A DNA stretch of 64,000 bases from an uncultured Hyphomicrobiaceae bacterium (GTDB taxonomy: Bacteria > Pseudomonadota > Alphaproteobacteria > Rhizobiales > Hyphomicrobiaceae). Under the pieces are notes generated by a model. It worked only from the letters and a program-made list of their open reading frames with translations, did no database searches and was not told the origin of the DNA. Made by a program: the position numbers and the translations under genes. The stretch lies in NCBI GenBank assembly GCA_905480435.1, contig CAJQQK010000104.1:5523-69522 (forward strand). Reading direction: 5' to 3'. This document shows positions 17,166 to 50,693 of this stretch, piece after piece; position 1 is the first letter of the stretch, and each line of letters opens with the position of its first letter.

Positions 17166-17834
17166 TCAACCAAGCTTGGCTCTTCCGAGAATTCGCAATG
17201 CCGCACAGGCCGCGCCATAACCATTGTCGATATTGCAGACCGTCACTCCTGACGCGCACGAAACCAGGCTCGCTGCAAGCGCCGTCTCGCCGTTTCGTGC
17301 AGCGCCATAGCCCGTCGACGTCGGCACCGCGATCAGCGGTTGAGCGACAAGTCCGCCGAGCACGCTGACCAATGCTGCGTCCATACCGGCGACCGCAATG
17401 ATAACGTCATGCTGGCGGATCTCCTCAAGGCGCTCCATCAACCGCCAGAGGCCAGCGACACCGACATCGAAAATTGCCGTGGCATTGACGTCATTGAATG
17501 CGAGCGTGCGCAACACTTCGTGCGCCGCCCCTGCATCGGACGTACCAGCCGCCACGACTGCCACTTGTCTTCCCGCTGAACTGCCGCTCGCGACAAAATC
17601 GAAGAAAGCCGTCCCTGAAACCGGGTCATAGTCCAGTCGCTCAGCCAACTCAGGTCCGAGCTCGGCGTATTGCGTCGCGCTCAATCGGGTCAGCAACAGG
17701 GGGGCACCGGCATCGCCTGCCAGCTCAAGAATGCGCCCAATCTGAGCAACCGATTTCTGCTGACAGAAGATCGCCTCCCCAAAGCCGACGCGCTCACTGC
17801 GCATCAAATCGAGTTTGATTTCCTCGTCGGTCAT
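17166..17834 (-). CDS. larB: LarB, nickel-pincer cofactor biosynthesis carboxylase/hydrolase (PurE-like)
   Basis: VAVVAAGTSDAGAAHEV... IAVAGMDAALVSVLGGLV... PTSTGYGAA pattern typical of LarB. ATGA overlap with larE. Confidence 0.9.
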   Translation of the reverse strand: MTDEEIKLDLMRSERVGFGEAIFCQQKSVAQIGRILELAGDAGAPLLLTRLSATQYAELGPELAERLDYDPVSGTAFFDFVASGSSAGRQVAVVAAGTSDAGAAHEVLRTLAFNDVNATAIFDVGVAGLWRLMERLEEIRQHDVIIAVAGMDAALVSVLGGLVAQPLIAVPTSTGYGAARNGETALAASLVSCASGVTVCNIDNGYGAACAALRILGRAKLG

Positions 17835-19994: not shown

Positions 19995-20006
19995 GCACGC
20001 TCCTGC

Positions 20007-20846: not shown

Positions 20847-20894
20847 TGTCGTTTCCTCTATCTGTCAGGCAATCTGCGTTTCAACTTCTGTGAC

Positions 20895-21722
20895 CTAAAC
20901 CGGCCGATCCCCCTTGACCGTCACACGATAGCCGGAGCGGGTGTTCGGAAAATAATCCCAGATCGCAAGGTGCTGTACTGCCCGGTTGTCCCAAAACGCC
21001 ACCGAATTTGGCTTCCACCGAAAACGCACATGAAAATCTGCATTAGCGCAATGCTCATGCAGCATCCGTAAGATGCTTTCACTTTCGAGACGTGGCACGT
21101 CGTTAATGCGCATCGTAAAGATCGGGTTGACGAACAGCGCCTTGCGGCCCGTCTCTGGATGTGTGCGAACCACCGGATGGTCGGCGCTCGGGTACACCAT
21201 GCGGCTGTCATCGGAGACCATATCTTTGTATCGGCCGCGATATTGCTGCTCACCATCGTGCCGAGCCGTGAGACCATCAAGGTATGCCTTCATGCGATCC
21301 GAAAGCGCATCGTAGGCGGCACACATGTTGGAGAACAGCGTGTCGCCACCAAACTCAGGAACCGTGTGCAAATGAAGAATGGAGCCGAGCGGCGGCTCCT
21401 CATCGCACGACACATCCGAATGCCAACGCTCGCCTGCAATATACGTTGAAGTCTTATCCGCGTGGATCGGCAAGATCTCTGGATGCCCTTCTGGCCCTGG
21501 TATCGCCGGGTGGACGTGCAGCTCACCAAACAACCGGCCAAACGCCTTGTGGCTGTCATGATCAAGTTCCTGGTCGCGAAAGAAGATCACGCAATGCTCT
21601 TTGAGCGCCTCGTGTACTTCGTGTGAGGTTCGATTATCCAACGGTTTGGTCAGATCAACGCCTTCGATTTCCGCTCCGATCCGTGCCGTCATCGGATTGA
21701 CCTTGATGACTTCGTATTGCAT
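20895..21722 (-). CDS. TauD/TfdA-family Fe(II)/2-oxoglutarate dioxygenase
   Basis: ARIGAEIEGVDL start region, HxD motif WHSDVSCDEEPP, SILHLHTVPEFGGDTLF, and C-terminal WDNRAVQH. Confidence 0.9.
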   Translation of the reverse strand: MQYEVIKVNPMTARIGAEIEGVDLTKPLDNRTSHEVHEALKEHCVIFFRDQELDHDSHKAFGRLFGELHVHPAIPGPEGHPEILPIHADKTSTYIAGERWHSDVSCDEEPPLGSILHLHTVPEFGGDTLFSNMCAAYDALSDRMKAYLDGLTARHDGEQQYRGRYKDMVSDDSRMVYPSADHPVVRTHPETGRKALFVNPIFTMRINDVPRLESESILRMLHEHCANADFHVRFRWKPNSVAFWDNRAVQHLAIWDYFPNTRSGYRVTVKGDRPV

Positions 21723-29312: not shown

Positions 29313-30281
29313 ATGCGGAAAATCACAATCGGGCTGGCTGGAGCACTGAGCGGCCTGGCAATGATGTCAACTTCAGCACAAGCGTGCGGTCAAGTTACCA
29401 TCACTGAAATGAACTGGGCGTCATCGCAGGTCGTAACCGCCGTCGCTAAATTCATTATGGAGCAGGGCTACGGCTGCAAAGTAAAGAAAGTGCCGTCTGC
29501 GACCGTTACCGCCGTTGCGTCTATGGCTGAAACCAATCAACCGGATATCGCCACAGAAGTCTGGGTCAACTCTGCTGCGCTTTATCCGAAGCTCGTCAAG
29601 CAAGGCAAAGTCAAAACGCTCGCTAACGTCCTGTCAGACGGTGGCGAAGAAAATTGGTGGATTCCAAAATATCTGGCCGACAAGCACCCTGAGTTGAAAA
29701 CCATCGACGGCGTGCTCAAGAACCCGAAACTGGTTGGGTCTATGTTCCACAACTGCCCAACAGGTTGGGGTTGTCGGATTGCCAACGACAATCTGAAAGT
29801 TGCCTTTAAACTTGAAGAAAACGGCGTCAAAGTATTCGATCACGGCTCTGGTGAGACGTTGTCAAGTTCCTTGGCATCTGCATATGCCGACAAAAAACCT
29901 TGGTTTGGCTACTACTGGGCGCCAACGGCGGTTCTTGGCAAATACGCAATGGTGAAGGTCGACATGGGCCCGCACAATGCCGAGTACCATAAGTGCAATC
30001 AGAAAAAAGACTGCGCGACGCCACGCAAGTCGTCTTATCCGTCAGCTCCTGTTCTGACAGCGATCACGACTACGTTCGCCAAACGCGAGCCTGCCATTGC
30101 CGAACTGATGAGCAAAGTATCGTTCACGAACGCGCAAATGGGCGAAATGCTGGCTTGGAAAAAAGACGGCAAGAAAACATCTGATGAAACCGCTGTGTAC
30201 TTCCTGACCAAGTACAAGAGCATTTGGGGCAATTGGCTGAACGCTGACGCCAAGAAGAAACTTTCTGCTCTACTTAAGTAG
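29313..30281 (+). CDS. proX: Glycine betaine/quaternary amine ABC transporter substrate-binding protein (ProX-like)
   Basis: Signal peptide, ITEMNWASSQV, WWIPKYL and YYWAPT aromatic-box-like motifs. RBS GGGAGG before the ATG. Confidence 0.85.
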   Translation: MRKITIGLAGALSGLAMMSTSAQACGQVTITEMNWASSQVVTAVAKFIMEQGYGCKVKKVPSATVTAVASMAETNQPDIATEVWVNSAALYPKLVKQGKVKTLANVLSDGGEENWWIPKYLADKHPELKTIDGVLKNPKLVGSMFHNCPTGWGCRIANDNLKVAFKLEENGVKVFDHGSGETLSSSLASAYADKKPWFGYYWAPTAVLGKYAMVKVDMGPHNAEYHKCNQKKDCATPRKSSYPSAPVLTAITTTFAKREPAIAELMSKVSFTNAQMGEMLAWKKDGKKTSDETAVYFLTKYKSIWGNWLNADAKKKLSALLK

Positions 30282-30330: not shown

Positions 30331-30453
30331 AGCCCGTCCAAATTTGCATATCTGATGACAACGGGTAAACTGCAATCAAAGATGCCAAAAGGCCAATGAC
30401 GATATTGAAGGCCGGCACCCTTGTTGGCCCAAGGGGCGGGAAACAGCACGCGA

Positions 30454-31485
30454 ATGGCTTATTACGACTGGTTTTTTGACGGACTTGGCTTGCGCACCTG
30501 GTGTGACGGAGCCGAGAAAACTGGCTCAATGAGCATGGCCGAACTCATGGCCAAGGCCAAGGGCACCAGTGTCGAAACGCCATGGTGGGACGTTCCGTTT
30601 CCGTCGTTGGATAATCTCCACAAAGCCTGCGGCTCAATCGCCCGTAGCGTCGATATGACAAGCGGCGTGGAAGAAGCATTTCTCTATATCAAGGGCGGGC
30701 TAAAAGCCGTTCTGGATCCGATCACAGAACCTCTCAGTTGGTTGCTTGATGGGTCACTGGCGCTCTTTGTTGGCATGCCCTGGTGGCTGCTCATTCCGAT
30801 TCTTCTCGCCGGTACCTACTATGCGTCACGCAACGTCGGTGTCACGATCTTCGTTGCTATCTCATTCCTCTTCCTGGCCTTCATCGACCACTACAGCTAC
30901 TCGATCGAAACACTATCGATTATCTTCGTGTGCACAGTACTTTGTATCCTGCTTGGTGTGCCGATTGGCATTGCGATGTCGAAGAACGACACCTTGCAGC
31001 GGATGACGATACCGGTGCTCGATATGCTGCAAACGTTACCGGCCTTCGTTTATCTCATACCGTTGATCTTCCTGTTTAGTGTGACGGAATCCAAGCTCTA
31101 TGGCATCGCGATCATCATGTACGCTATCGTACCGGTGATCCGCCTAACTGACCTTGGCATTCGACTGGTCGATAAGGATGTCATTGAGGCGGCAGACGCC
31201 TTCGGGATGACCAATCGGCAAAAACTGTTTGGTGTCGAGATTCCGCTGGCGATGCCGAACATCATGGCCGGCGTCAATCAGACGATCATGATGGCGCTTG
31301 CGACCGTTGTTATCGCGTCGCTGGTGTCAGCCCCCGGGCTTGGCACGTTGGTGTTGCGCGGCATTCGCAACCTCGAGCTTGGCGTTGGGCTCGTCTCTGG
31401 CTTCGGCATTGTGCTGCTCGCTGTTATTCTCGATCGCGTGAGTAAGGCCTCGTTGGCGCGCATTAACACCACCCAACGAGGTTGA
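30454..31485 (+). CDS. proW: Glycine betaine/proline betaine ABC transporter permease (ProW-like)
   Basis: Polytopic protein with the EAA-type loop region (DKDVIEAADAFGMTNRQKLFGVEIPLA). Start is uncertain: TTG 30421, ATG 30454 or ATG 30529. Confidence 0.85.
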   Translation: MAYYDWFFDGLGLRTWCDGAEKTGSMSMAELMAKAKGTSVETPWWDVPFPSLDNLHKACGSIARSVDMTSGVEEAFLYIKGGLKAVLDPITEPLSWLLDGSLALFVGMPWWLLIPILLAGTYYASRNVGVTIFVAISFLFLAFIDHYSYSIETLSIIFVCTVLCILLGVPIGIAMSKNDTLQRMTIPVLDMLQTLPAFVYLIPLIFLFSVTESKLYGIAIIMYAIVPVIRLTDLGIRLVDKDVIEAADAFGMTNRQKLFGVEIPLAMPNIMAGVNQTIMMALATVVIASLVSAPGLGTLVLRGIRNLELGVGLVSGFGIVLLAVILDRVSKASLARINTTQRG

Positions 31486-31494: not shown

Positions 31495-32568
31495 ATGACA
31501 GACAAAAAACTCAAAGTTGTCATCCGCGATCTGTATAAGATCTTCGGTCCCGATCCGGAATCTGTGCTGGATCATGCCCGCAACGGTATGAGCAAAACGG
31601 ATCTGCTTGAACAGCACGGTCACGTGCTTGGTCTGCGCGACATCAATGTCGATATGGCCGATGGTGAAATCACCGTGATCATGGGGCTTTCAGGCTCTGG
31701 CAAATCAACGCTGATCCGTCACTTGAACCGCTTGATCGACCCGACCGGTGGTGAAATTCTTGTCGATGGCACCGACGTTCTGGCGTTCTCGGAAGAAAAA
31801 TTGCGCGAGCTGCGCCAATTGACGATGTCGATGGTGTTCCAAAAATTCGCGCTGCTGCCGCACCGCTCCATTGTTCAGAACGCCGGCATGGCGCCGCGTG
31901 TACGTGGCGAATCGGATGCAGAAGCCGATGCCGAGGCACAAAAGTGGCTCGACCGCGTCGGACTTGGTGGTTACGAGAACCATTATCCGCACCAGTTATC
32001 GGGTGGCATGCAGCAACGCGTCGGCATCGCCCGCGCGTTAACGTCGAACTCGCCAATCATGCTGATGGATGAGGCTTTCTCGGCACTTGATCCCTTGATC
32101 CGGACGGACATGCAGGACCTCTTGCTTGAGCTGCAAAAGGATCTGCACAAGACGATCATTTTCATCACCCACGACCTTGATGAGGCTCTGAAGCTGGCCG
32201 ACCATCTTGTCATTTTGAAAGATGGCGCAATCGTCCAGCAGGGCGAACCACAACACATCTTGCTCAATCCGAACGATCCGTACATCGAGGATTTTGTCAG
32301 CGACATCAACCGTGCTCGCGTGCTCAAGGTGCGCTCAATCATGGCGCCGCTTGGTTCGGCCAATCGTGACAATACCTTTGGCGAAGTGGATGGTGACAGC
32401 ACGCTTGAGGGCGTCATCGCGCAGTCGGGCGGCGACACAACGCACAACTATCTGGTTGTCAAAGATGGCGAGCCAATCGGCGTCCTGGACATGAAGGACC
32501 TGGTCCGCGCGCTAGTGCCTCGTACTGCGTCCGAGCAAGGCATTCGTGGTCAGGCTTCAGCAGCCTAA
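31495..32568 (+). CDS. proV: Glycine betaine/proline betaine ABC transporter ATP-binding protein with C-terminal CBS region (ProV-like)
   Basis: Walker A GLSGSGKST, signature LSGGMQQRVGIARAL, and a roughly 90-aa C-terminal extension. Confidence 0.9.
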   Translation: MTDKKLKVVIRDLYKIFGPDPESVLDHARNGMSKTDLLEQHGHVLGLRDINVDMADGEITVIMGLSGSGKSTLIRHLNRLIDPTGGEILVDGTDVLAFSEEKLRELRQLTMSMVFQKFALLPHRSIVQNAGMAPRVRGESDAEADAEAQKWLDRVGLGGYENHYPHQLSGGMQQRVGIARALTSNSPIMLMDEAFSALDPLIRTDMQDLLLELQKDLHKTIIFITHDLDEALKLADHLVILKDGAIVQQGEPQHILLNPNDPYIEDFVSDINRARVLKVRSIMAPLGSANRDNTFGEVDGDSTLEGVIAQSGGDTTHNYLVVKDGEPIGVLDMKDLVRALVPRTASEQGIRGQASAA

Positions 32569-32689: not shown

Positions 32690-33313
32690 TCAATCGTTAT
32701 CCGTCAGCCCGGCTCCGGCCCCACTGATACGTGACTGTTCGCTTGCCGGCACATAGGTTTTGTAGGCAAGCGCACCAAGCTTCTCCCAGCCGTTGTCTCC
32801 AACAGCCACTGGATCGTATCGCGTCGCAAGATCCGAAGCGGCTTCGACTCGCTCGCTGCTTGTCAGTCCCAACATCACTGTTCCAGGCTTGATTGCGTCA
32901 AAGCCAAGTACTGCGGTTCCAACGCTCGATATGCCACCCACGTGACGCATCTCAAAACCGACATTGTGCAATTCAGCGGCAACACCTGCCAGCCCAAGCA
33001 GCAACACCGGCTCATCCAATCCTTGTAGTTCGATGGTATCGCCTAGGGTGCGAGCCAGCAGCAGATCGATGGCTGACACGCCATCGACGGATGCTCTAGC
33101 CGTTTGAAATGTCACGACCTGCGCTGCACGATCGATCGCGCTCTCTCGCATGCCACGACCAATTGATCGAGCAACAAGATCGCAAACCGGGACACCGCGA
33201 CGCGCCAGCCAGACACCGGCCTCCGATATTGCAACGCCATGCCCCGTTGGAAATCCAGCCCCCATGGCGGCTTTCCTGAGCAAGCCTGCAAGCTCGTTGA
33301 GTGAATACGTCAT
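32690..33313 (-). CDS. Conserved protein of unknown function (DUF3726-like, from memory)
   Basis: 207 aa from MTYSLNELAGLLRKAAMGAGFP. ATGA overlap with the upstream 568-aa gene. No catalytic motif recognised. Confidence 0.55.
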   Translation of the reverse strand: MTYSLNELAGLLRKAAMGAGFPTGHGVAISEAGVWLARRGVPVCDLVARSIGRGMRESAIDRAAQVVTFQTARASVDGVSAIDLLLARTLGDTIELQGLDEPVLLLGLAGVAAELHNVGFEMRHVGGISSVGTAVLGFDAIKPGTVMLGLTSSERVEAASDLATRYDPVAVGDNGWEKLGALAYKTYVPASEQSRISGAGAGLTDND

Positions 33314-35016
33314 CCGGACACATCCAGGTTTGGCAGCACCGGCAACCACCAGTCATCGGCCTCTTCGGGGCTCAGTTCATCAAACAGCGGAGCACCCTGA
33401 TAGAGCGTAATGCGCGTCCACCGGTCTGACCGGGGATCAAATTTTGACGCACCAAAGAACGATAATTTCAAGCGCAGCATATCGATCGGCAAGCATTGGT
33501 CCGAGATGAGATTGTCGCGGATCTCGCTATAAGAATACTTCGCAGCGGTCTGCACGCGCGCGATAGCGTAACGGTGCCCAGGATGCCGCAACAGGAATTC
33601 TGCCACGGTTTCATTGCCATCCGTTTGCGCCAGGTCGCGCGCGAGTGCCTGCACCTGCCGGGCGATATCCAGGGGCATTTCCAGTTCGGCGCCATCTTCT
33701 TCGTAGCGCGCACCAAGCCGCGGCTCCAGCTTCTCCTCTGATACGTACCAAAATTGCGCCGTCTGATCGCGCGCGCCGAAATCAATATTGTTCGCAAAGC
33801 CGAATGCCTCATTGAGGCACTTGGTCAGTTCTGCGGCGCGCATTTTGGAATTCAATGCCGGCTCAATACGCCATGCCATTTCGCGTTCAAGATCATCGAT
33901 CAGCTCGCCATGCGGCTCCAGAACCAATGCAACCACAAGCTCCTGACACTCTAACGAATACGGTTTTGACGCCGCGATTACCACATCCCAGGGTTGCGCC
34001 TGTTGTGACCAATCAAGCTCTTTCAGACGTTGCACAAGCTCCCGCACTTCGCGGCGCAACACTTCGATCCGCTGCATCTGCTGTTCGTCATCAACAGACC
34101 ACTGGTCCAAATGCAGCACAACGCGGGCTAGTAATTGGCCTATTTTCTCGACACTGCCAGGCCCTGCCACCGGCAACGCGCGAACACGAGCCAACGCTGT
34201 TTCGCGTGCCATGATCCAGTTGTTGAGCAAAATCGGATGGCTGACCAGAAACGGCGCCATGCCAAGCCCCGTCGAATTGCCGATGCCAAGATAACGTTTC
34301 AAGCGCCGGTCGAGCGGCACGAAGGTTTCCGAGTTGCGTCGCTGCGCAACATGCTCAACCAGATCATGTGTGAATCCTCGGATCAGCCAAACGAGCAGCA
34401 TTTCAGCGCGGAACGGACCATCCAGTCCCGGCCTCGCCGCAATAACCTCCCGATCAGCAATGCCGAATTTTCCGTTGCCATAAACGGCTGTCGTGCGCAT
34501 CAAATAGCCAGTTGCGCGGATAAGATCGATGTCCGGCTGTCGTCCATTGGCCAGACTCTCAACCACATGCGAGAACAACCGCACCGATTTATTGGCACGG
34601 CTCAGGATCAGGTCGCACTCGTCAAATCGGCCTGCTTCCTGCAGCGGCGCATTGGCTGCAAGGCGGTCGATATCCTGCGCGTTCGGTATTCCGTCGAATA
34701 GGACATAACTCGTGTCCCACGCTTCAGCGATGACACGATCGGTACGCTTGTCGGGCTCCAGCTCCGTCGCAAAAGCCACCAGATTATATATGTGAGTGCC
34801 AAGCTGTACCTGATAGACGGCGCGGCCATAGCCTTCATCGTTGATCTGCCACAACGGCCGCGATACCGAAGCGCCTTCGCGCGACACAAACCGCAACAGC
34901 GATCGCATAAAGCTGAGCCGGGTCGGAAACGCAGATCCCATCCGGGCAAGCCGCATCACCTCATCCGGCGAGCGTAGTTCGGCACATTCGTGCTGTTGCT
35001 CAGCCGCCTGCTTCAT
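33310..35016 (-). CDS. Hypothetical 568-aa soluble protein, no family recognised
   Basis: Long uninterrupted ORF with coding-like composition. ATGA start/stop overlaps on both sides (35013-35016 and 33310-33313). Confidence 0.7.
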   Translation of the reverse strand: MKQAAEQQHECAELRSPDEVMRLARMGSAFPTRLSFMRSLLRFVSREGASVSRPLWQINDEGYGRAVYQVQLGTHIYNLVAFATELEPDKRTDRVIAEAWDTSYVLFDGIPNAQDIDRLAANAPLQEAGRFDECDLILSRANKSVRLFSHVVESLANGRQPDIDLIRATGYLMRTTAVYGNGKFGIADREVIAARPGLDGPFRAEMLLVWLIRGFTHDLVEHVAQRRNSETFVPLDRRLKRYLGIGNSTGLGMAPFLVSHPILLNNWIMARETALARVRALPVAGPGSVEKIGQLLARVVLHLDQWSVDDEQQMQRIEVLRREVRELVQRLKELDWSQQAQPWDVVIAASKPYSLECQELVVALVLEPHGELIDDLEREMAWRIEPALNSKMRAAELTKCLNEAFGFANNIDFGARDQTAQFWYVSEEKLEPRLGARYEEDGAELEMPLDIARQVQALARDLAQTDGNETVAEFLLRHPGHRYAIARVQTAAKYSYSEIRDNLISDQCLPIDMLRLKLSFFGASKFDPRSDRWTRITLYQGAPLFDELSPEEADDWWLPVLPNLDVSG

Positions 35017-35999
35017 GACGCCGGCACAAGCGCGCTGTCGTAAAACCGGATCCAGTTGGCCCCCATGATGCCTTTGACATCATCTTCACTAAATCCGACC
35101 TGACGCAGGCCAGCCGTAATCTTCGGAAAGTCAGCGTTCGATGCAAACCAATCCGTCGGCGCCGGGAACTGCGCGCCGGGCTCTGCTGTGCCTCGTGCCG
35201 GCAATTGCTTGCGCCAGCGGCCATCGCGCATCCACTGGACCACTGTGTCAGGCCGGTTCTGGCACAGATCCGAGCCAATCCCCAGCATCTCGGCGCTGTG
35301 CTTCTCGGCGACCTTTGCGACCATCTCGCAAAACGCTTTCAACGTGCATGCCGAGCCACCGGCCAGATGGTGCGGATAAAGCGAAAATCCGAGCATGCCG
35401 CCACTGTCCGCCAGCGACTTGATGACATCGTCAGAAACATTGCGCAACTCATCGCGCCAAAAGCGCGGATTGGCATGGGTCACTGTAATCGGGCGGCCGG
35501 ATATCTCAATCGCCTCCAGCGTCGTGCGCTCGCCGGCGTGGCTCATATCGATGGCCATACCCAGACGGTTCATCTCCCCAATGACCTCGCGACCGAAATT
35601 GGTGACGCCACCATCGCGCGGTTCATACCAGCCAGAACCTGTCAGCGACTGATTGTTATACGTCAGCTGCATAAAGCGCGCGCCAAGCGTGTGGCAGATC
35701 TCAACCATGCCGATGTCGGCTTCGATCGGCGCCGGGTTCTGGAACCCAAAAAAGATCGCGGTACGGTCTTCCTTGATAGCGCGGCGGACGTCGTCACCAG
35801 TCCGTCCCATGAAGATCAGATCCGGGAATGCTTGAAACCAGCCATTCCACTCCTCAATGTTATCGATCATCTCCCGAAAATTCTCGTGATACGCGATAGT
35901 TGCATGCACAGCGCTTACGCCACCGGCGCGCATCTCGCGGAAGACTTCTTCCGACCAGTTTGCGTACTGCAGGCAATCAACGACAGGGACTTTTTCCAT
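35013..35999 (-). CDS. Membrane-dipeptidase (peptidase M19, renal dipeptidase) family protein
   Basis: VVDCLQY..., FFGFQNPAPIE, ARFMQLTYNNQS, DMSHAGERT, VTHANPR motifs typical of M19. Start MEKVPVVD at 35999. Confidence 0.8.
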   Translation of the reverse strand: MEKVPVVDCLQYANWSEEVFREMRAGGVSAVHATIAYHENFREMIDNIEEWNGWFQAFPDLIFMGRTGDDVRRAIKEDRTAIFFGFQNPAPIEADIGMVEICHTLGARFMQLTYNNQSLTGSGWYEPRDGGVTNFGREVIGEMNRLGMAIDMSHAGERTTLEAIEISGRPITVTHANPRFWRDELRNVSDDVIKSLADSGGMLGFSLYPHHLAGGSACTLKAFCEMVAKVAEKHSAEMLGIGSDLCQNRPDTVVQWMRDGRWRKQLPARGTAEPGAQFPAPTDWFASNADFPKITAGLRQVGFSEDDVKGIMGANWIRFYDSALVPAS

Positions 36000-36209
36000 C
36001 AGCGTCTTCCAAAGTTGGCTCGAACGGTGCAGCAACACCCTATTTCGCATACTGATCAAAGAACGCAATATCACAAGCAAAAACACCAATTCGCGATAAA
36101 GTGCTGACACGCCCACATCGAATTGCTTAGAGTGCGTTTGGAACAGTTGCGATCAACCGGAGGCCCGACCATTTCAGCGCTAGATCAAAAAACCGCCGCG
36201 ACCACTGCC

Positions 36210-37295
36210 ATGAAGGGCGGAGGGTATTACAGCCAGAGCACACGTGGCGCCAAGGACGTGATCGACAACGCCTCGAGCATGCTGATCGATGCCGTCGCAG
36301 CCTTGCCGGCACCTCAGAACGGTCGACCGATTAATATTGCCGACTACGGCGCGGCAGATGGCGGGACATCAAAGAAATCGATACGCGACACCGTCGCCGC
36401 CCTGCGTGGTCGGTTTACTAATCAGCAGATCCTCGTCACGTACACGGACCTTGCCAGCAACGACTTCTCGACGTTGTTCAAATCCATGCAAGGCCTCGAT
36501 GGCGACGCTGACAACACCTATTACAACGAGTTCGACGGCGTGTTCGTGCACGCCTGTGGCATCGGCTTTCACCGCCAACTCATACCCGACGGATCGTTGA
36601 GCCTCGGCTTCTCAGCAACCGCGATGCACTACATCTCAGAAAAACCGTGTGAAATTCCAGATCATGTCCACATGGTCGGTGCCAGCGGCGCGGCCCTGCA
36701 AGCCTATGCCGATCGCGCGGCGAAAGACTGGGAAAACATCCTGCTCGCACGCGCCAACGAACTCGTATCCGGCGGCCGCCTGGTATTCATGAATTTCGGC
36801 AAAGACGAGCAAGGCCGCTATCTCGGTGGCACCGACGGCATCGATATGTTCGATACGTTTGACAGTTTGTGGAAGGAACTGGCAGCCGAGGGGCGCATTA
36901 CGCAGGACGAATACGTCAACGCTAGCTTCTCTCAGTTCTACCGCACCAAGGAAGAGTTCTCGGCACCACTGCTTGATACTGCATCGCCTGTCCATGCGGC
37001 TGGCCTGCGTCTGATCTCTGCCCACACCGGCGTCGTCAAATGTCCGTATCGCGCCGCATTCGAAGCGGCCAACGGCGCCATGAGCGCGCGTGAGTTCGCT
37101 GTCTCCTATATCCCGACGCTGCGTTCATGGAGCGAGACGGTGTTTGCGACCGCGCTTGATCGCGGGCGCCCCGCAGATGAACGCGCCGCAATCGTCGATG
37201 ATTTCTTCCAGCGCTATGAAGACCGCGTCGCGACCAATCCTGACGGGCACGCAATGGACTACGTTCACTGCTACCTCGCCATCGAAAAGGTTTAG
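36210..37295 (+). CDS. SAM-dependent methyltransferase of the plant SABATH (Methyltransf_7) type
   Basis: MKGGGYYSQST..., IADYGAADGGTS, YTDLASNDFSTLF and SATAMHYIS parallel the SABATH blocks M.GG.G..SY, ADLGCS.G.N, DLP.NDFN..F and S.SLHWLS. Start is uncertain: TTG 36123; in-frame ATT 36171, 7 nt after GGAGG; or ATG 36210. Confidence 0.75.
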   Translation: MKGGGYYSQSTRGAKDVIDNASSMLIDAVAALPAPQNGRPINIADYGAADGGTSKKSIRDTVAALRGRFTNQQILVTYTDLASNDFSTLFKSMQGLDGDADNTYYNEFDGVFVHACGIGFHRQLIPDGSLSLGFSATAMHYISEKPCEIPDHVHMVGASGAALQAYADRAAKDWENILLARANELVSGGRLVFMNFGKDEQGRYLGGTDGIDMFDTFDSLWKELAAEGRITQDEYVNASFSQFYRTKEEFSAPLLDTASPVHAAGLRLISAHTGVVKCPYRAAFEAANGAMSAREFAVSYIPTLRSWSETVFATALDRGRPADERAAIVDDFFQRYEDRVATNPDGHAMDYVHCYLAIEKV

Positions 37296-37555
37296 GAAAC
37301 CTCTGAACAAGTGAACGCTCTTTTGAACGTTCTTGGCAAATACTTCTCTATCTTGCTTCGCCGGAAAATGCGTCAGCGTCTATCCGGGGCCTTTAACACC
37401 TAACGGCAATACTCTGTTGTTGCCGGAAAAGTGCAAAGACCCTGGATCTCTGCTTCGCTCCGTCCACAGCATCAGAACGAGAAGTATGCGACCTGTAATA
37501 AAGTTGGTCAGATTTCCTTAGGGCATAATGCGAGCTCGAAAACAACGGAATCGAT

Positions 37556-38710
37556 ATGACGGAATTTGCTAATCTAACGCCGCAGCAATTGGCCCTGCTG
37601 CAACAAGTCCGCACGTTTGCAGATGACGTTGTGGCACCTGCGGCACCTGAGTGGGACCGCAACCGCGCTTTCGGTCGCGATGCCATCGGCGCTGCCGCCA
37701 AGCTTGGTCTCACCGGCTTGCAGGTGCCTGTCGCAATGGGCGGCTTGGGTCATTCGTTTTCCTGCAAAGCTCAAGTCACCGACATCGTTGCCGGCGCTGA
37801 CTTCGGCTTCGCCATGTCGCTCATCAACACGCAGAACGTCGCCTATAAACTGTCACGCGATGCGTCGCCCGAGGTTGCCCAGCGCTACATTCCCGCTCTG
37901 CTCTCCGGCGACCGGCTTGGCAGCACAGCCCTGACGGAACCACATGCCGGTTCCGATTTCGCCGCGATCACGACGCTCGCTACTCCCAATGTCGATGGTT
38001 GGAGCGTGACCGGCAAAAAGGCATGGATCATCAACACCGTTGCCTCAGACATTATGGTGCTTTACGCGCAGACCGAAGCTGGAAGCGGCGGCGCTGGCAT
38101 CGCAGCCTTTCTGATTGATGGCACGCGAGACGGCTTCGTGCGCTCCGACCGCTTCGAGATGACGGCGCAGCACACTATTGGCGCTGGTGGTTTCGAATTG
38201 CGCGACTACCAAATCCGCCACGACGAACTGCTGCAACCAGCTGGTGAGGCGTTCAAAGTGGCACTGCGCGATATCAACGGCGCGCGCATATATGTTGCAG
38301 CAATGTGTTGTGGCATGGTCGATGCCGCCTTGCAGGTCGCTGCCAACTACGGTCGCAATCGCAAAACATTTGGCCGCCGGCTTGGTGAGCACCAAGGATG
38401 GCGCTGGACGCTCGGCGAAGCTGATGTCGATCTCAGCGCCGCACGCCAAATGGTCGGCCACGCATCCGGCATGATCGACCGCAATGAAGACGCTCAGTTT
38501 GCAGCCGCCAAAACCAAGATCTTCGCAACGCGCATGGCCGAGCGTCATCTGCCCGCACTTGCCCAACTGATGGGCGCCGAAGGCCTGCAGGACAAACATC
38601 CATTCGGCCGGCACCTGATCGGCGCGCGAATTGCTGGCTTTGTTGATGGCTCCACTGAAATGCTGCTTGAGCGCCTGACCGGCACCTATGCACGAGAAGC
38701 GAAACGTTGA
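37556..38710 (+). CDS. Acyl-CoA dehydrogenase
   Basis: 384 aa with typical ACAD organisation (LTEPHAGSDFAAI, KAWIINT, C-terminal helical domain). Confidence 0.9.
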   Translation: MTEFANLTPQQLALLQQVRTFADDVVAPAAPEWDRNRAFGRDAIGAAAKLGLTGLQVPVAMGGLGHSFSCKAQVTDIVAGADFGFAMSLINTQNVAYKLSRDASPEVAQRYIPALLSGDRLGSTALTEPHAGSDFAAITTLATPNVDGWSVTGKKAWIINTVASDIMVLYAQTEAGSGGAGIAAFLIDGTRDGFVRSDRFEMTAQHTIGAGGFELRDYQIRHDELLQPAGEAFKVALRDINGARIYVAAMCCGMVDAALQVAANYGRNRKTFGRRLGEHQGWRWTLGEADVDLSAARQMVGHASGMIDRNEDAQFAAAKTKIFATRMAERHLPALAQLMGAEGLQDKHPFGRHLIGARIAGFVDGSTEMLLERLTGTYAREAKR

Positions 38711-38712
38711 GC

Positions 38713-40251
38713 ATGTCGGCCATGCTCTATCCGATGGCGCCTGTAGTCCAGGAACCGAACAAGGTCGCCTTCTGCATCTCCGAGACCGGAGAATCCGTCA
38801 CCTTCGACCAGCTCGAACGGCGCTCCAATCAAGCCGCGCAACTGTTTCGCTCATGTGATGTACAAGCCGGCGACCACATTGTTTTGCTTGCCGAGAACTG
38901 CCGGCAATATTTTGAAATCTGCTTTGCAGCCGATCGTGCTGGAATCTACTACACGGCGATCAGCACCCACGCCACAGCCGACGAAGCGGCCTACATAACA
39001 GCGCACTGCGGCGCCAGCCTGATCATCGTTTCCGAGGCCAAGTCGGCAATTGCCGCAACCATCCACGATCAACTGCCCGATATCAATCATCGCTTCATGA
39101 TTGGCGAATCCATCGCCAGCTATCAAAGCTGGGACGCAGCTGTTGCCGCGCAGCCCGAGGCGCGCGTTGCCGATGAAATGCAAGGCCTCGACATGCTCTA
39201 TTCGTCCGGCACCACCGGGCGTCCCAAAGGCATTCGATGGCAGCAGGCAGACACGCCACCCGGCCAAAAGACGATGCTCGTCAAACTGCTCGGCTCATTG
39301 TTCGGTTACAGTGTCGACGCGCGCTACCTGTCGCCGGCACCGCTCTATCACGCAGCCCCATTGCGGCACTCGATGACCGTGATCAAGCTTGGCGGCACGG
39401 TCACGGTGATGCAACGCTTCGATGCTGAGCGCGCATTGCAATTGATCGAGACCCATCGGATCACCCACAGCCAGTGGGTGCCGACGATGTTCGTGCGCAT
39501 GCTCAAGCTGCCAGATGATGTCCGCACCAAATACGATTGTAGTTCCCAGCAAGTCGCGCTGCATGCCGCCGCGCCCTGCCCGCTCCAGACAAAGGAGCAG
39601 ATGCTGGAATGGTGGGGGCCTATTCTGCACGAGTATTATGCCGGCACCGAAAACAACGGTTTTTGCGCGATCACGAGCCCCGAATGGATTGCGCACAAAG
39701 GCTCGGTTGGGCGCGCACTGCTCGGCACTCTACGGATTTGTGATGACGATGGCCGCGAACTACCATCCGGCTCAACCGGCACCGTGTATTTCTCTGACGC
39801 GCACCCGTTCACCTATCACAATGATCCGGAGCGCACCGCTGACAGCCGCAACGATCTCGGCTGGACCACACTTGGCGACATCGGTCGCCTTGATGAGGAC
39901 GGCTACCTCTATCTGCTCGACCGCAAGGCCTTCGTCATCATTTCAGGCGGCGTCAACATCTACCCGCAGGCAACCGAAGACCTGCTGATCAACCACCCAA
40001 AGGTTCTCGATGCCGCCGTCTTCGGCATCCCGAATGAAGACTTCGGAGAAGAGATCAAAGCCGTCGTCCAACTCACCGACCCAACTAGCGACACGTCTGC
40101 ACTTGAAGCTGAACTGATCGCCCATTGCCGCGCACATCTATCGTCCCTCAAGTGCCCAAAAACCATTGACGTAACGGCTGAACTGCCGCGTCACGCCAAC
40201 GGCAAACTGCTGAAGCGCCAGATCCGCGACCGCTATTGGCCGGCGGAATAG
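38713..40251 (+). CDS. AMP-forming acyl-CoA synthetase
   Basis: AMP-binding motif YSSGTTGRPKGI, GWTTLGDIGRLDEDGYLYLLDR, C-terminal GKLLKRQIR. ATG 38713 lies 2 nt after the ACAD stop; alternative TTG at 38707. Confidence 0.9.
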   Translation: MSAMLYPMAPVVQEPNKVAFCISETGESVTFDQLERRSNQAAQLFRSCDVQAGDHIVLLAENCRQYFEICFAADRAGIYYTAISTHATADEAAYITAHCGASLIIVSEAKSAIAATIHDQLPDINHRFMIGESIASYQSWDAAVAAQPEARVADEMQGLDMLYSSGTTGRPKGIRWQQADTPPGQKTMLVKLLGSLFGYSVDARYLSPAPLYHAAPLRHSMTVIKLGGTVTVMQRFDAERALQLIETHRITHSQWVPTMFVRMLKLPDDVRTKYDCSSQQVALHAAAPCPLQTKEQMLEWWGPILHEYYAGTENNGFCAITSPEWIAHKGSVGRALLGTLRICDDDGRELPSGSTGTVYFSDAHPFTYHNDPERTADSRNDLGWTTLGDIGRLDEDGYLYLLDRKAFVIISGGVNIYPQATEDLLINHPKVLDAAVFGIPNEDFGEEIKAVVQLTDPTSDTSALEAELIAHCRAHLSSLKCPKTIDVTAELPRHANGKLLKRQIRDRYWPAE

Positions 40252-40410
40252 GCGGCCCAAAGGGCGGTCGCAGCCCGTCATCCCATAAGTAATGTCTGTA
40301 CCGCTACGATCAGCAGACCACCGTCTCTGGCTTGCAGGCGCGCGTCCCTCATGAAACAATTTGCTAGAGTGCAGACTTTGGCACTTCTGGCAGACGAAGG
40401 AGACGTTGCG

Positions 40411-41514
40411 ATGGATGTCGGCTTTATGATGCTTTTCGCCAGCTACGGCTGGGAGAATTGTTCCGATGCTCAGACCTGGCACGAAGAGCTGAGGCTTGCT
40501 GAACTGGCGGCCGATTCCGGCTTCGACGTGATGTGGTCAACTGAGCACCACTTCGAAGACTATTCGTTTTGCCCCGACAACATTCAGCTAATGACCCATC
40601 TCGCGGCGAAACACCCGCACATCGATATCGGCACCGCCGCCGTCATTCTGCCCTGGCATGATCCGCTACGTGTTGCCGAGCAAATTGCTGTGCTTGATTT
40701 CCTCAGCGAAGGACGGCTGCGATTCGGCATGGGTCGTGGGCTTGCCCGCCGCGAGTTCGAAGGTTTTCGCATCCCAATGGACGAATCACGCGGGCGCTTC
40801 GATGAGGCCGCTCCAATGATCATCAAGGCGCTGGAAACCGGCTTCATCGAAGGCGATGGCAAGTTCTTCAAACAGCCGCGCGTTGAAATCCGTCCGCGCC
40901 CGCAACACTCCATGGCGGGTCGCCTCTATTCAGTCGCGACCAGCGAAGAATCCGTCGAGTCGGTGGCCAAGCTCGGCGACGTCCGGATCGTCATGTTTGC
41001 CGACCGGCCTTGGGAACTGCGCGCACCGATCATTGATCACGGTCGCGCCCTGCATCTAAAACACCATGGCCGCCCCGCGCCGCCACCAATGCTCACGGAT
41101 TTCGCGATTTGCGCGACGTCAAATGATCAAGCCGAAGAGTGGGCTCGGCAATATCAAGGCATGTTCACCGAGAGCAATTTTCATCACTACGAATTCCTCG
41201 GCGAGCATTTCAAATCCGTCAAAGGCTACGGCGGCTATCAGCAAAAGGCCGAGTTTGCGCGCAAAACCGGCGGCGATCTATCAGGTGCCGTCGACAACTT
41301 CATGAAGGCTGCCAGCTGGGGCACACCCGATCGTATCTTGCGCGAACTTGAAAAGCGCCGCGAGCTGGTCGGTGACTATGAACTCAACGTCGCCTTCCGC
41401 TTTGGCGGCACGCCGATGAGCGTCGCAGAAGAAGGCCTTAAACTTTTCGCCAAAGAAGTGCTACCTGTTCTCAAAACATGGAAGGCGGCAGATGCCACAG
41501 CCGCCGCAGAATAA
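40411..41514 (+). CDS. Luciferase-like (LLM class) flavin-dependent monooxygenase
   Basis: MDVGFMMLF... WSTEHHFEDYSFCP... FGMGRGLARREFEGF pattern resembling LuxA-like monooxygenases. ATG 40411 after GAAGGAG. Confidence 0.85.
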   Translation: MDVGFMMLFASYGWENCSDAQTWHEELRLAELAADSGFDVMWSTEHHFEDYSFCPDNIQLMTHLAAKHPHIDIGTAAVILPWHDPLRVAEQIAVLDFLSEGRLRFGMGRGLARREFEGFRIPMDESRGRFDEAAPMIIKALETGFIEGDGKFFKQPRVEIRPRPQHSMAGRLYSVATSEESVESVAKLGDVRIVMFADRPWELRAPIIDHGRALHLKHHGRPAPPPMLTDFAICATSNDQAEEWARQYQGMFTESNFHHYEFLGEHFKSVKGYGGYQQKAEFARKTGGDLSGAVDNFMKAASWGTPDRILRELEKRRELVGDYELNVAFRFGGTPMSVAEEGLKLFAKEVLPVLKTWKAADATAAAE

Positions 41515-41525
41515 GGCGCTCAACT

Positions 41526-42107
41526 GTGCAGATTGCCATCACGAAGTTTGCTCTGAGAAACTGGGAGCCTGGCAAGAGCAGCACCCGCATTGAGGGCCTA
41601 AGCCCGGCTGAACTAGTCAATCAGTGCAACCAAGCGATGGCAGCCGGTGCCGATCTGGTGCCGGGTTACGCGCCGTTCTGCAAGCACCTGTTTCTCGAAA
41701 ACGGATCGCCGACACGCTGCGGCTTTGCCCCGATCACGCCTGCCAATCAGCATCTTCTGCGATCCGGATACCACGCCCGCCGCGATGGCGAACTCGCCGT
41801 TTTGGAGCGCTGGTTTGAAGGCCTCAAAGCGCTGCCAGCCAAACACCTCGATGTCATCTTGTATAGCCACGATCAGCTCGTCAAAGAGGCTGCCGGCTTT
41901 ACCGAGGAAGAATCTGACGTGCCAGATTGCGATTGGGGCATCGTCAGCATTATTGGCACGCTGACACCGACCGAACCGCCGATGCCGCCAATCACCCAGT
42001 TGCGTAATGCGCTTGGTACTGCCGAAGGCGGATCGGGCGCAGCGCTTGATCCTGAAGCCTATGCCGGCGCCGTCGCGTTTTGGGATAAGCACGCTGGGAT
42101 CAAATAG
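41526..42107 (+). CDS. Conserved protein of unknown function (DUF3228-like, from memory)
   Basis: 193 aa from a GTG start (VQIAITKFALRNW...), 11 nt after the LLM stop. No catalytic motif recognised. Confidence 0.5.
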   Translation: MQIAITKFALRNWEPGKSSTRIEGLSPAELVNQCNQAMAAGADLVPGYAPFCKHLFLENGSPTRCGFAPITPANQHLLRSGYHARRDGELAVLERWFEGLKALPAKHLDVILYSHDQLVKEAAGFTEEESDVPDCDWGIVSIIGTLTPTEPPMPPITQLRNALGTAEGGSGAALDPEAYAGAVAFWDKHAGIK

Positions 42108-43158: not shown

Positions 43159-44304
43159 TTACTTGCCGTATTGCGATGCGATCCAGTGATGGAAGCAATG
43201 TGTCGGGCCATCCATCACAGGCGAGAACTTGCCACCGTCAAAGCCCCTCGCATGGCGCCCCTGCTGCATACCTTCGACGACAAAAATGTCTTCGGCAAAA
43301 ATACCTTTCCAAAGCACAGCATTCTTCTCGCGCAGATCGGCCATCGGTTCGTCGGTCATATCCGGCGCGGCGTAGTAGATCTCGATATGCTCGCGCGTCG
43401 TGGTTTGATCAACAGCTTCTAGCAGGATGGCATAGACATGATCGCGATGGACGCCGAACAATAAGTTCGGATAGAGCGCGATATACTCCGCACCACTATC
43501 CCATCGCTCGGAAATGTTTTCGAAATTGGAGAACGTCCGCCCGCTGTCATCCAACTTCGGATTGTAGACGAGTGATCCTTGCCCCGAATAGAGCCCGTAC
43601 TCATTGATATTGTAGTGATCTTCAAGTCTTGAGTAACTGTTGAGGCCGGGATGCACCCAGGGCAGGTGGTAGCTCTCACAATAGTTCTCGACGGCCAATT
43701 TCCAATTGCAATTCACATCCAGCTTGAATGAGCTTTCCTCGCCACCGTGATGGATCGGCTTTGCAAAATCCTTCCACCGGTTGATCAAGTCAGCCGCATA
43801 TTCCTCGAACGGCGGTGCGGTGCCACTGATGTTGACGAATATGACGTCCTGCCAGACGTGCGCGCGCACCTCAATCAAGCCAAGCTCATCACGCTTAATG
43901 CCATCATGCGCATTGCAGTCCGGCCCGCCGACATGTGGCGTCGCCGCTAACCGGCCATCGGTTCCATATGCCCAGGAGTGATAGGGACACCGGATCACGC
44001 CCTCAATTTTGCATGGCGCGCTGACCAGCTTCATGCCGCGATGCCGACAGACGTTCATATAGACTCGGACAGCGCCCTCGCGATCACGCAGCACGAGCAG
44101 GGGCTGGCCGAGAAAGTTAATCGGTCGCGCGTCGCCAGGCTCGGCCACGTCTTTGCCAAACCCAATGCCCGCCCAATTGTCGAAGAACACCGACTGCTTT
44201 TCGCGCTCGAACGTTTCGCGGTCAACATAATGCTCGTTGGGCAGGCCGCGTGCGGTTGTTACCGGTTCAAGAACACGGTCAAGATTGTTGTCGAGCGGGC
44301 TCAT
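43159..44304 (-). CDS. Rieske [2Fe-2S] non-heme-iron oxygenase alpha subunit (GbcA/CntA/choline-monooxygenase-like)
   Basis: Rieske motif CRHRGMKL...CPYHSWAY. Start MSPLDNNL at 44304 after GGAG; the ORF track starts at 44430. Confidence 0.8.
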   Translation of the reverse strand: MSPLDNNLDRVLEPVTTARGLPNEHYVDRETFEREKQSVFFDNWAGIGFGKDVAEPGDARPINFLGQPLLVLRDREGAVRVYMNVCRHRGMKLVSAPCKIEGVIRCPYHSWAYGTDGRLAATPHVGGPDCNAHDGIKRDELGLIEVRAHVWQDVIFVNISGTAPPFEEYAADLINRWKDFAKPIHHGGEESSFKLDVNCNWKLAVENYCESYHLPWVHPGLNSYSRLEDHYNINEYGLYSGQGSLVYNPKLDDSGRTFSNFENISERWDSGAEYIALYPNLLFGVHRDHVYAILLEAVDQTTTREHIEIYYAAPDMTDEPMADLREKNAVLWKGIFAEDIFVVEGMQQGRHARGFDGGKFSPVMDGPTHCFHHWIASQYGK

Positions 44305-44446
44305 TGGGCATCTCCGATACGTCATTTGACGACTCGGAGTGGAGCAGCTTCTGCCGCAGTTGATTTGCTTGAAATCGACATGGATTGCAGCGGATTGAAC
44401 AAAATTCGAGCTACTCATCCAGAGCTGCAACCGTCACCGATTGGGC

Positions 44447-46867: not shown

Positions 46868-47364
46868 GGTCTGGATTCCGGCCTGTTCGTTCAAATTCAT
46901 TGTCTAACAGGCTGGATATTCGTCGATGCCACGACGGTCGGCTTTTGCACACACGTCAATGATTTGCAGGAATGCGCCACGCTCATATCACTTCCGGTAT
47001 TGTCTCCCGCATGTGCCCGCAGCCGAAAGCCCGCCAAGACGTTCGGATGCGGCTCCAGGAGCAGCACTGTTGTCTGCTTGAGATCGGCAAACAATTGTTT
47101 AGCAATAAATTAAGTCACGTATCGTCTTGCCCTCCCGGCCAGGCGGCGGCCGGCATGCAGCAGTACGGCACAGGTCAAGAACCGCCGCGCGAGCCGGGAC
47201 CTTTTGCGCTTGCTATTGGAGTATGGCCTCGCAAACCAAGACGGTGAAAGGCCCCGGACATCGCACGAAGGGTGCGATTCCGGGGATGCGACTTACTGGA
47301 GGTAAATCGTGCGTCGTTGCCCAAACAAGCAGGCCTTTAAACTGTGCTCTATGCAATGCAGCAC

Positions 47365-50644: not shown

Positions 50645-50693
50645 CGTCTGCTCGCTCTCCGAAATTCCCCTCAGCAAAACAACGCGTCGTTTA

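Follow-up and report, generated by a model that had tools for sequence, protein, structure and literature searches.

What might three overlapping genes do together when the middle one encodes a protein that resembles nothing with a name? The genes in question lie on the minus strand of a 64,000-nucleotide (nt) stretch of contig CAJQQK010000104.1 from an uncultured Hyphomicrobiaceae bacterium (assembly GCA_905480435.1); the whole stretch is called the window here. An earlier note on this DNA had taken them for a translationally coupled triad within a betaine locus. We found that the three genes, referred to as the trio, form a conserved module whose recurrent genomic partners are instead linked to dimethylsulfoniopropionate (DMSP), and we suggest that the trio may represent a missing component of marine DMSP metabolism on an undescribed fold. 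In the order in which they would be transcribed, the genes are as follows.

35013..35999, minus strand: M19-like gene, 328 amino acids (aa) from the ATG at 35999; Peptidase_M19 (PF01244)
33310..35016, minus strand: 568-aa gene, the core of the module; undescribed family, no matching fold
32690..33313, minus strand: DUF3726 gene, 207 aa from its ATG; truncated Ldh_2-type fold

Read along the minus strand, the ATGA stop/start overlaps fall at exactly 35016-35013 and 33313-33310, and both junctions are thus where the earlier note had placed them. A longer M19-like protein starting from a GTG at 36116 was judged unlikely because identical metagenome contigs are called at 328 aa and homologues are 321-334 aa long. 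The ATG start of the DUF3726 gene is backed by the N-termini of its homologues (MxxSxNE). A scan for promoter-like or terminator-like sites inside the trio gave none above the shuffled expectation, and none of the three proteins matched a model in NCBIfam. No mention of DUF3726 or of the trio was found in the searchable literature corpus, in which the search on the DgcA structure was poorly targeted.

Conservation of the trio

At least 8000 clusters at 90% identity match the 568-aa protein; all are unnamed and none carries a Pfam domain. At 50% identity the family comprises 1732 clusters (E<=1e-3), and at least 594 loci were found in species-representative genomes, mostly of marine taxa. The family extends over Rhodobacterales, Hyphomicrobiales, SAR116/Puniceispirillales, Rhodospirillales, Gammaproteobacteria, Acidimicrobiales, Poribacteria and a deltaproteobacterium, and the trio itself over roseobacters, SAR116, marine Hyphomicrobiales, Acidimicrobiia and Gammaproteobacteria. 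A nucleotide search detected the same arrangement on 84 plasmid or chromid records from Phaeobacter, Aminobacter, Shinella, Sinorhizobium and others. RefSeq labels the three genes 'membrane dipeptidase', 'hypothetical protein' and 'DUF3726 domain-containing protein'.

Gene order was compared in 80 of the at least 594 species-genome loci together with annotated loci (internal labels such as L001 are given where loci must be told apart). A DUF3726-like gene lies directly 3' of the 568-aa gene in all 85 loci with sequence available, and of 83 loci, 62 have a 4-nt overlap (NTGA) between the two genes and a further 8 a 1-nt overlap. The M19-like gene stands immediately 5' of the 568-aa gene in about 66 of 83 loci, is one gene off in about 6 more and is absent within 10 kb in about 10; the M19/568-aa junction is a 4-nt overlap in 38 of 63 loci. 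Adjacency and overlaps are kept across Alpha-, Gamma- and Deltaproteobacteria, Acidimicrobiales and Poribacteria. Among the best 150 of the 1732 cluster representatives at 50% identity, 40 are at least 690 aa long, and at least 30 of these have a 568-aa domain followed by DUF3726 in a single chain (for example P0318, P0320, P0322 and P0324; 760-960 aa among about 30 representatives). The longer fusions carry an extra 100-150 residues of unassigned sequence. None of the 150 representatives joined the 568-aa domain to an M19 or a full-length Ldh_2 protein. The adjacency, the conserved overlaps and the fusions therefore suggest that the 568-aa and DUF3726 proteins are one functional unit, of which the M19-like protein is a frequent yet dispensable third partner.

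Collectively, these results show that the conservation of the trio is far beyond chance and more general than the earlier note had supposed, and that its description of a conserved, translationally coupled unit was sound. It had also raised the possibility of a complex. As far as the 568-aa and DUF3726 proteins are concerned, the constant adjacency and the fusions argue that they are indeed one entity; the M19-like protein may be a further member.

Some loci depart from this pattern. In two Anderseniella loci, L069 (8929-9957) and L070 (3-677), the place of the M19 gene is taken by a histone-deacetylase (HDAC)-family, acetylpolyamine-amidohydrolase-like gene that lies directly upstream of, and overlaps, the 568-aa gene, an apparent non-orthologous displacement. 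L001 (NZ_CP084753.1) is labelled 'UNVERIFIED_ORG: Roseateles sp. XES5' (Betaproteobacteria), a doubtful label, as the trio operon of this record most resembles the Shinella and Aminobacter ones. L005, one of the metagenome contigs with the identical trio, differs from L004 and L006 in that it has, at 19499-21191, three different small open reading frames (ORFs) instead of a DctM gene, which indicates a strain-level rearrangement of the neighbouring tripartite ATP-independent periplasmic (TRAP) transporter. YcjX/YcjF and sugar-metabolism genes recur beside roseobacter trios and were set down to lineage synteny rather than to functional linkage.

Folds and altered sites of the three proteins

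The 568-aa protein is unusually conserved (60-77% identity across orders) and Arg-rich, with many invariant Arg, Asp and Glu residues; its conserved motifs include RTDRVIAEAWD, YGNGKFG, GIGNxTGLGMAPF and FWYVSEEKLEPRLG. It had no significant match in Pfam, NCBIfam or the PDB (phmmer). An AlphaFold (AF2) model was obtained with a predicted local distance difference test score (pLDDT) of 87 and a predicted template modelling score (pTM) of 0.91, and Foldseek searches of the PDB and BFVD with this model gave no match at E<=0.001 (best probability <=0.15, TM ~0.1). The motifs that are conserved most strongly sit in low-confidence loops of the model, such as YGNGKFG at 177-185. In databases dated up to 2026 the family has no name, no curated model and no solved structure. 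The remark in the earlier note that the protein matches nothing nameable thus applies to its sequence and to its fold, and the model suggests that it is an undescribed family with a new fold. Across this family and a paralogous one in soil bacteria, described below, 74 columns are at least 97% identical.

The third protein had been said to look like the DUF3726 family, and this was confirmed by a match to PF12525 at residues 4-48 (25.1 bits against a gathering score of 22.1). The same domain is present in 63 of 71 database homologues. The protein diverges faster than its 568-aa partner, at 28-60% identity. Oxidoreductases of the Ldh_2 family carry their catalytic His in an SHG loop of the N-terminal domain. 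An iterated hidden Markov model (HMM) of the DUF3726 protein recruits neighbouring Ldh_2 proteins; hhalign aligns it with Ldh_2 at a probability of 89.9% (E 1.7e-6), with the SHG region in a 5-residue deletion; and the top 27 Foldseek matches of its AF2 model (pLDDT 89.6) in the PDB are all Ldh_2 proteins (probability 0.94-1.00), with alignments of only ~140 residues to targets of ~340 residues. These three independent tests show that DUF3726 is a truncated Ldh_2-type fold without the catalytic SHG loop. It has approximately the fold of the N-terminal half of the family that includes the type-2 malate/L-lactate dehydrogenases, the ureidoglycolate dehydrogenase AllD, YiaK, the sulfolactate dehydrogenase ComC and the Pip2C/Pyr2C reductase DpkA. 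In contrast to these proteins, which are ~330-360 aa at full length, it has 207 aa, has lost the SHG loop, ends in a conserved C-terminal tail of its own (YVPASEQSR..GAGAGLTDND, the most conserved part of the protein) and is an obligate partner of the 568-aa protein, or part of the same chain. In the operon, the DUF3726 gene often precedes one for a full-length Ldh_2 protein.

Membership of the first protein in the M19 family, as the earlier note had claimed, is clear from PF01244 (237.6 bits against a cut-off of 26, E 2.4e-70), the match beginning at profile position 35. Its relatives in the PDB are 2i5g, 3id7 and 1itq, with 2i5g the best at 1.3e-56, and no signal peptide is evident. The binuclear zinc site of M19 enzymes such as DPEP1 and Sco3058 is formed by a strand-1 His-x-Asp, a bridging Glu and two His. 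In the window protein the N-terminal HxD is gone, with CLQY-type residues there (VVDCLQY), and a Gln stands where the bridging Glu would be (GFQN compared to GAEG in 3id7), so that three of the five metal ligands are replaced; the histidines of DMSH and THAN and the Asp of GIGSD are retained. Across 70 trio-type homologues this pattern is conserved at 90% or above, and the same altered site is found in 2i5g, in the dgc-operon proteins of Ralstonia and Halomonas and in a paralogue of S. meliloti. Because its metal-site residues are altered, the protein is predicted not to be a canonical binuclear dipeptidase.

The dgc operon was the source of a parallel drawn in the earlier note, namely that a dipeptidase-like gene and a DUF3726 gene precede dgcAB in Pseudomonas aeruginosa. 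The operon has the order PA5396-PA5397-dgcA-dgcB (PMC13492115). In Ralstonia and Halomonas, the dgc operon continues after the M19-like gene with a gene for DUF5943(+V4R), for which a profile comparison with DUF3726 gave a probability of 0.2%. A DUF3726 partner was thus ruled out in these two operons, and only the half of the parallel that concerns the M19-like gene stands. The PDB entry 2i5g, which was deposited as 'amidohydrolase' and which we take to be PA5396, shares 89% identity with the dgc-operon protein of Halomonas. The window protein is 34% identical to 2i5g compared to 59-64% to its trio-type relatives. Overall, identities are 59-69% among trio-type proteins, 69-89% among dgc-type proteins and 32-36% between the two types. 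No dgcA, dgcB, ALDH (aldehyde dehydrogenase), Ldh_2 or V4R gene is located within the 64-kb window, and with its 34% identity and no dgcA, dgcB or V4R gene near it the window gene does not qualify as an orthologue of PA5396. By sequence, the window and dgc types are paralogous subfamilies rather than one shared gene pair. The PA5396/PP_0308 type belongs to the same Pfam family, has the same loss of HxD and Glu-to-Gln change, and keeps the two His and the Asp; both types also head operons for the catabolism of small methylated zwitterions. In the dgc type the M19-like gene is followed by DUF5943/V4R and dgcAB-etfAB, whereas in the window type it is followed by the 568-aa and DUF3726 genes and is tied to DmpXWV, DddP, ALDH and Ldh_2.

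DMSP-linked neighbourhood and a proposed role

What, then, does the trio act on? The genes that converge on it in the window encode a transporter:

29313..30281, plus strand: predicted DmpX-type periplasmic DMSP-binding protein (Pfam OpuAC), convergent with the trio
30421..31485, plus strand: DmpW-like permease of an ATP-binding cassette (ABC) transporter, between the DmpX-like and ATPase genes; BPD_transp_1 on identical contigs
31495..32568, plus strand: DmpV-like ABC ATPase; ABC_tran on identical contigs, Walker A GLSGSGKST

The binding protein aligns without gaps to RnDmpX in complex with DMSP (PDB 7YLE; E 8e-120, 54% identity). Seven of the eight pocket residues are identical (W35, T64, W84, E113, W152, Y200 and W202), and A153 is replaced by Gly. 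Tyr200 was reported to be essential for DMSP binding by DmpX (Li et al. 2023, PMC10030565), and position A153 was described as hydrogen-bonding the carboxyl group of DMSP (PMC10030565). In the same work, DmpX showed little binding of betaine, choline, carnitine or trimethylamine N-oxide (TMAO), and homologues down to ~35% identity still bound DMSP (PMC10030565). The earlier note had placed the trio between proXWV and a methyltransferase. A transporter and a methyltransferase do flank it, but the transporter is not of the betaine type; judged by its pocket residues, it is a DmpXWV-type DMSP importer. It is also alike in architecture to the DmpXWV importers of Ruegeria, Roseovarius and SAR11. 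While dmpXWV was reported not to be co-localised with known DMSP catabolic genes (Li et al. 2023, PMC10030565), in the window and in many relatives the importer genes co-localise with the uncharacterised trio.

DmpX-like proteins with Tyr200 are co-operonic with the trio, or lie within about 5 kb of it, in L007 and L010 (a second Hyphomicrobiaceae metagenome-assembled genome, MAG, and an unclassified alphaproteobacterium), L062 (a SAR116 MAG) and L073 (Magnetovibrio), as well as in Microbaculum marinum, Nitratireductor sp. and Hoeflea sp. The fullest operon, found in Hyphomicrobiales, reads LysR | ALDH-M19-568aa-DUF3726-Ldh_2-DmpX-permease-ATPase. Compared to this form the window operon is without ALDH and Ldh_2, and its transporter is inverted. 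ALDH is present in 25 of 84 loci and Ldh_2 in 17 of 84, and both are in the full Hyphomicrobiales operons.

Known DMSP genes accompany the trio elsewhere. L052 and L080, gammaproteobacterial MAGs related to each other, have the gene of a DddP homologue in the trio operon, where it abuts the M19 gene (E 3e-103 to 4rzy/4s00/4b28); we take 4rzy and 4s00 to be the DddP of Ruegeria lacuscaerulensis. The homologue of L080 conserves all six metal ligands (D295, D297, D307, H371, E406 and E421) listed for DddP, which is a homodimer without partner subunits (PMC4108388). DddP, a DMSP lyase of the M24 peptidase fold, is a precedent for the recruitment of a metallopeptidase fold to DMSP catabolism. It has a pita-bread fold with all metal ligands kept, in contrast to the M19 TIM barrel of the trio with its altered ligands, and, unlike DddP, the trio has no known lyase activity. 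M24 genes near the trio in L083, L001, L060 and L045 were ruled out as DddP-like at 21-26% identity. In Phaeobacter inhibens pPGA1_262 the trio operon is convergent with dmdC-dmdD-dmdB-like-dmdA, and in Tritonibacter a BCCT transporter adjoins the trio; major facilitator superfamily (MFS) transporters flank the trio operon in L052. The recurrent genomic partners are thus DmpXWV, DddP and dmdA-D, and not gbcA or dgcAB, so that the reading as a betaine locus had to be revised.

A related operon occurs in soil Alpha-, Beta- and Gammaproteobacteria, namely S. meliloti pSymB (L088, 4538-7984), Pseudomonas typographi, Paraburkholderia, Bosea and Reyranella (paralogous loci L088 and L090-L093). It consists of genes for IclR, a 57x-aa protein, a 23x-aa protein, an M19-like protein and a polyamine-type (SBP_bac_8) ABC transporter, in some cases also with an omega-aminotransferase and an ALDH. 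The large protein (578 aa in S. meliloti) is 31% identical to that of the window (E 2e-69), and the small one is a full-length DUF3726 homologue (hhalign 95%). The soil operon has the same three components and the same altered M19 site as the window trio. It differs in that the M19 gene comes last and in its SBP_bac_8 transporter, IclR and omega-aminotransferase, and it is likewise uncharacterised. The paralogous trio therefore suggests that the trio is a generic catalytic unit that stands behind an importer and before aldehyde- or amine-oxidising enzymes.

On balance we give an even chance to the proposal that the trio is a novel heteromeric cytoplasmic catabolic enzyme acting on DMSP or on its C3 product. 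The 568-aa core, with its novel fold, would be bound to the half-Ldh_2 DUF3726 protein, and the pair would perform or organise the key step, with DUF3726 probably a non-catalytic scaffold or a tail-donating subunit. The remodelled M19 barrel would usually join this core and supply a hydrolase- or lyase-type site, and would be no ordinary dipeptidase. In the window organism, DMSP would be imported by the adjacent DmpXWV-type transporter and then acted on by the trio; alternatively, the trio may act on acrylate or 3-hydroxypropionate, the C3 compound that DMSP cleavage yields. Gene neighbourhoods point to a C-S cleavage or a hydration at C3 of the propionate skeleton as the possible chemistry, and in the fuller operon, which may be ancestral, the product would be oxidised by the co-operonic ALDH and Ldh_2. 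A post-cleavage step, the conversion of acrylate or 3-hydroxypropionate, is favoured because DddP is present in the gammaproteobacterial operon. Direct action on DMSP is equally allowed because the alphaproteobacterial operons hold only DmpXWV, the trio, ALDH and Ldh_2.

Several observations weigh against this proposal. About 70 of the 84 loci have neither a transporter nor a known DMSP gene within 10 kb, and DddP, dmdA-D, ALDH and Ldh_2 are all absent from the 64-kb window. We know of no role for ALDH or Ldh_2 in the known DMSP routes, and the co-operonic ALDH is nearest to alpha-ketoglutarate-semialdehyde dehydrogenase, at 475 bits against a cut-off of 770. The co-operonic DmpX-like proteins of Shinella and Aminobacter (L001, L003, L018, L023, L025 and L038) have Trp in place of Tyr200, at which the marine relatives all have Tyr, and their operon lies near sox, folD and purU. 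This replacement suggests a switch of ligand in the soil relatives, possibly to a nitrogen analogue such as beta-alanine betaine. The chemistry shared by the two kinds of trio cannot be DMSP-specific, because the paralogous module uses a polyamine-type transporter and an aminotransferase. In the 568-aa protein, where the earlier note had seen no obvious cofactor motif, we could not assign any cofactor or nucleotide motif either. A literature search on the trio members and DUF3726 found no biochemical, genetic or expression evidence. Finally, the specificity of DmpX was assayed on four quaternary amines only (PMC10030565), so a close analogue of DMSP is a possible ligand.

A bolder version of the proposal is correspondingly tentative. 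It is conceivable, if rather doubtful, that the 568-aa/DUF3726 pair and the remodelled M19 protein are an unrecognised enzyme of the marine DMSP cycle with a new fold, and that the sister module in soil carries out a corresponding reaction on an amine solute. Such an enzyme would be either a new one that cleaves or hydrolyses DMSP, or one that converts acrylate or 3-hydroxypropionate independently of coenzyme A (CoA).

Remaining window genes and rival explanations

Could the trio serve another substrate? Two further window genes bear on this question or on the setting of the trio:

36123..37295, plus strand: SABATH-type S-adenosylmethionine (SAM) methyltransferase (Methyltransf_7; PF03492, E 8.8e-32), divergent from the trio
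43159-44430, minus strand: Rieske/Ring_hydroxyl_A oxygenase, 96.2 bits against the NCBIfam cut-off of 670 for GbcA

The SABATH methyltransferase is a recurrent, non-universal neighbour, which adjoins the 568-aa gene in L011 and L076 and is 8 kb off in L052. In L076 it is on the same strand, directly upstream of the 568-aa gene, where it stands in for the M19 gene; genes for an enoyl-CoA hydratase and for a PhyH dioxygenase are nearby. It is uncertain whether it is part of the trio system. In the window this plant-type gene heads an operon (36123-42107, plus strand) whose other products are an acyl-CoA dehydrogenase, an AMP-binding enzyme, a luciferase-like monooxygenase and DUF3228. The window's candidates for DmdC (acyl-CoA dehydrogenase) and DmdB (AMP-binding) were rejected, being only 26-32% identical to the Phaeobacter proteins, the dehydrogenase aligned over only 110-144 residues. 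Nor could a zinc-type alcohol dehydrogenase encoded beside DmpX be established as the acrylyl-CoA reductase AcuI; those of its relatives that are annotated are generic alcohol dehydrogenases. The Rieske oxygenase, which the earlier note had called GbcA-like, falls well below the GbcA equivalog cut-off. It adjoins (43159-46900, minus strand) a gene for an 817-aa flavoprotein with the architecture of dimethylglycine dehydrogenase (DMGDH; DAO-FAO_M-GCV_T-GCV_T_C), so that a DMGDH-like gene is present as noted; no partner reductase gene was identified.

Two other clusters lie farther away. At 17166-19994 on the minus strand, a Ni_insertion (LarC-like, 18663-19994) and an AIRC (LarB-like, 17166-17834) gene flank a 280-aa ORF that has no Pfam match and is possibly LarE-like; MFS transporter, AMP-binding enzyme and Glyoxalase_3 genes adjoin them. 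From its domains this set looks like one for nickel-pincer cofactor biosynthesis. At 49751-53718, also on the minus strand, genes for a TauD-family dioxygenase, a bicupin, an Amidohydro_2 protein and a 3-hydroxyisobutyrate-dehydrogenase-like protein appear to form a further catabolic island, beside which is a second luciferase-like monooxygenase gene (48701-49747).

One rival, in line with the earlier note, is that the trio assists in demethylating quaternary amines or N-methyl amino acids (glycine betaine, dimethylglycine, sarcosine), as PA5396/PA5397 would in front of dgcAB; we regard this as unlikely. In favour of such a role, the altered active site is common to all M19-like subfamilies including the dgc type, and the window, L048 and L080 have DMGDH-like genes close to the trio. 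The Shinella/Aminobacter operon is near soxBDAG, a GlxA/GbdR-type regulator, folD and purU. There are also phenotypes from Pseudomonas: PP_0308-9, the counterparts of PA5396/PA5397 in P. putida, have significant fitness phenotypes on carnitine, choline and betaine (bioRxiv 10.1101/2021.12.09.472016), and an insertion in PA5396 of P. aeruginosa phenocopies dgcB (PMC13492115). These phenotypes, however, may be polar effects on dgcAB. The dgc partner gene, as read in Ralstonia and Halomonas, is DUF5943/V4R, not DUF3726, and the M19-like protein of the window is a 34%-identical paralogue of the dgc type. The window has no dgcAB, its Rieske protein is no GbcA equivalog (96 against 670 bits), and its transporter is of the DmpX type, whose characterised members bind little betaine, choline, carnitine or TMAO. 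An N-methyl role is conceivable for the soil-rhizobial variants only, with their Tyr200-to-Trp change and their place near sox, folD and purU.

A second alternative, which looks decidedly unlikely, is an amide-hydrolase (deacylase) system. The M19-like protein would cleave the amide of an imported conjugate, the 568-aa and DUF3726 proteins would bind or activate the substrate, and ALDH, Ldh_2 or an aminotransferase would act downstream. M19 lies within the amidohydrolase superfamily, but the site here has lost three of the five canonical metal ligands. An HDAC-family amidohydrolase substitutes for the M19 gene in Anderseniella L069 and L070, but this is a replacement in one genus only, and about 10 of 83 loci lack an M19 gene within 10 kb. 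The polyamine-type binding protein, omega-aminotransferase and ALDH of the paralogous soil operon would fit the release of a free amine, and M24 peptidase-fold genes flank the trio in L083. DmpX-type pockets, in contrast, hold free DMSP via its carboxylate, and DMSP is without an amide bond.

More doubtful still is a route of the cyclic imino-acid or (hydroxy)proline-betaine type ending in alpha-ketoglutarate semialdehyde. The ALDH scores best against models of alpha-ketoglutarate-semialdehyde and 2,5-dioxovalerate dehydrogenases, yet its 475 bits stand against an equivalog cut-off of 770. Delta1-piperideine/pyrroline-2-carboxylate reductase is a member of the Ldh_2 family, with 1wtj one of the fold matches, and OpuAC-type transporters also carry proline betaines; the binding proteins here, however, match the DMSP-specific pocket of DmpX. 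In L031 the trio adjoins DAO, DHDPS-family and ALDH genes, the classic hydroxyproline set, and in Sneathiella OCD/mu-crystallin and D-Ser-dehydratase-like genes lie across the LysR gene. Such neighbours occur in single loci, and no epimerase or Rieske demethylase is consistently linked. The last possibility, that an ordinary dipeptidase and two hypothetical proteins are functionally unrelated neighbours with incidental overlaps, is highly improbable: 4-nt overlaps are common in compact bacterial operons, but cross-phylum adjacency and overlaps, fusions, a paralogous trio and the degenerate metal site effectively refute it.

Few fluxes of reduced sulfur and carbon in surface seawater are as large as that of DMSP, from which the climate-active gas dimethyl sulfide (DMS) is formed. 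To our knowledge, the known bacterial enzymes (DmdA-D, the Ddd lyases, DmpXWV) leave some of the observed DMSP turnover unexplained. Present in hundreds of species, most of them marine, the trio offers a concrete candidate for a missing step that can be put to the test. If the proposed role of the trio in DMSP metabolism is true, it would give DUF3726 its first functional context, and a half-dehydrogenase fold and a dipeptidase fold with a degenerate metal site would have been put to new use as subunits. The role would also bear, by way of the related dgc-operon proteins, on the unexplained PA5396/PP_0308 genes of Pseudomonas choline catabolism.

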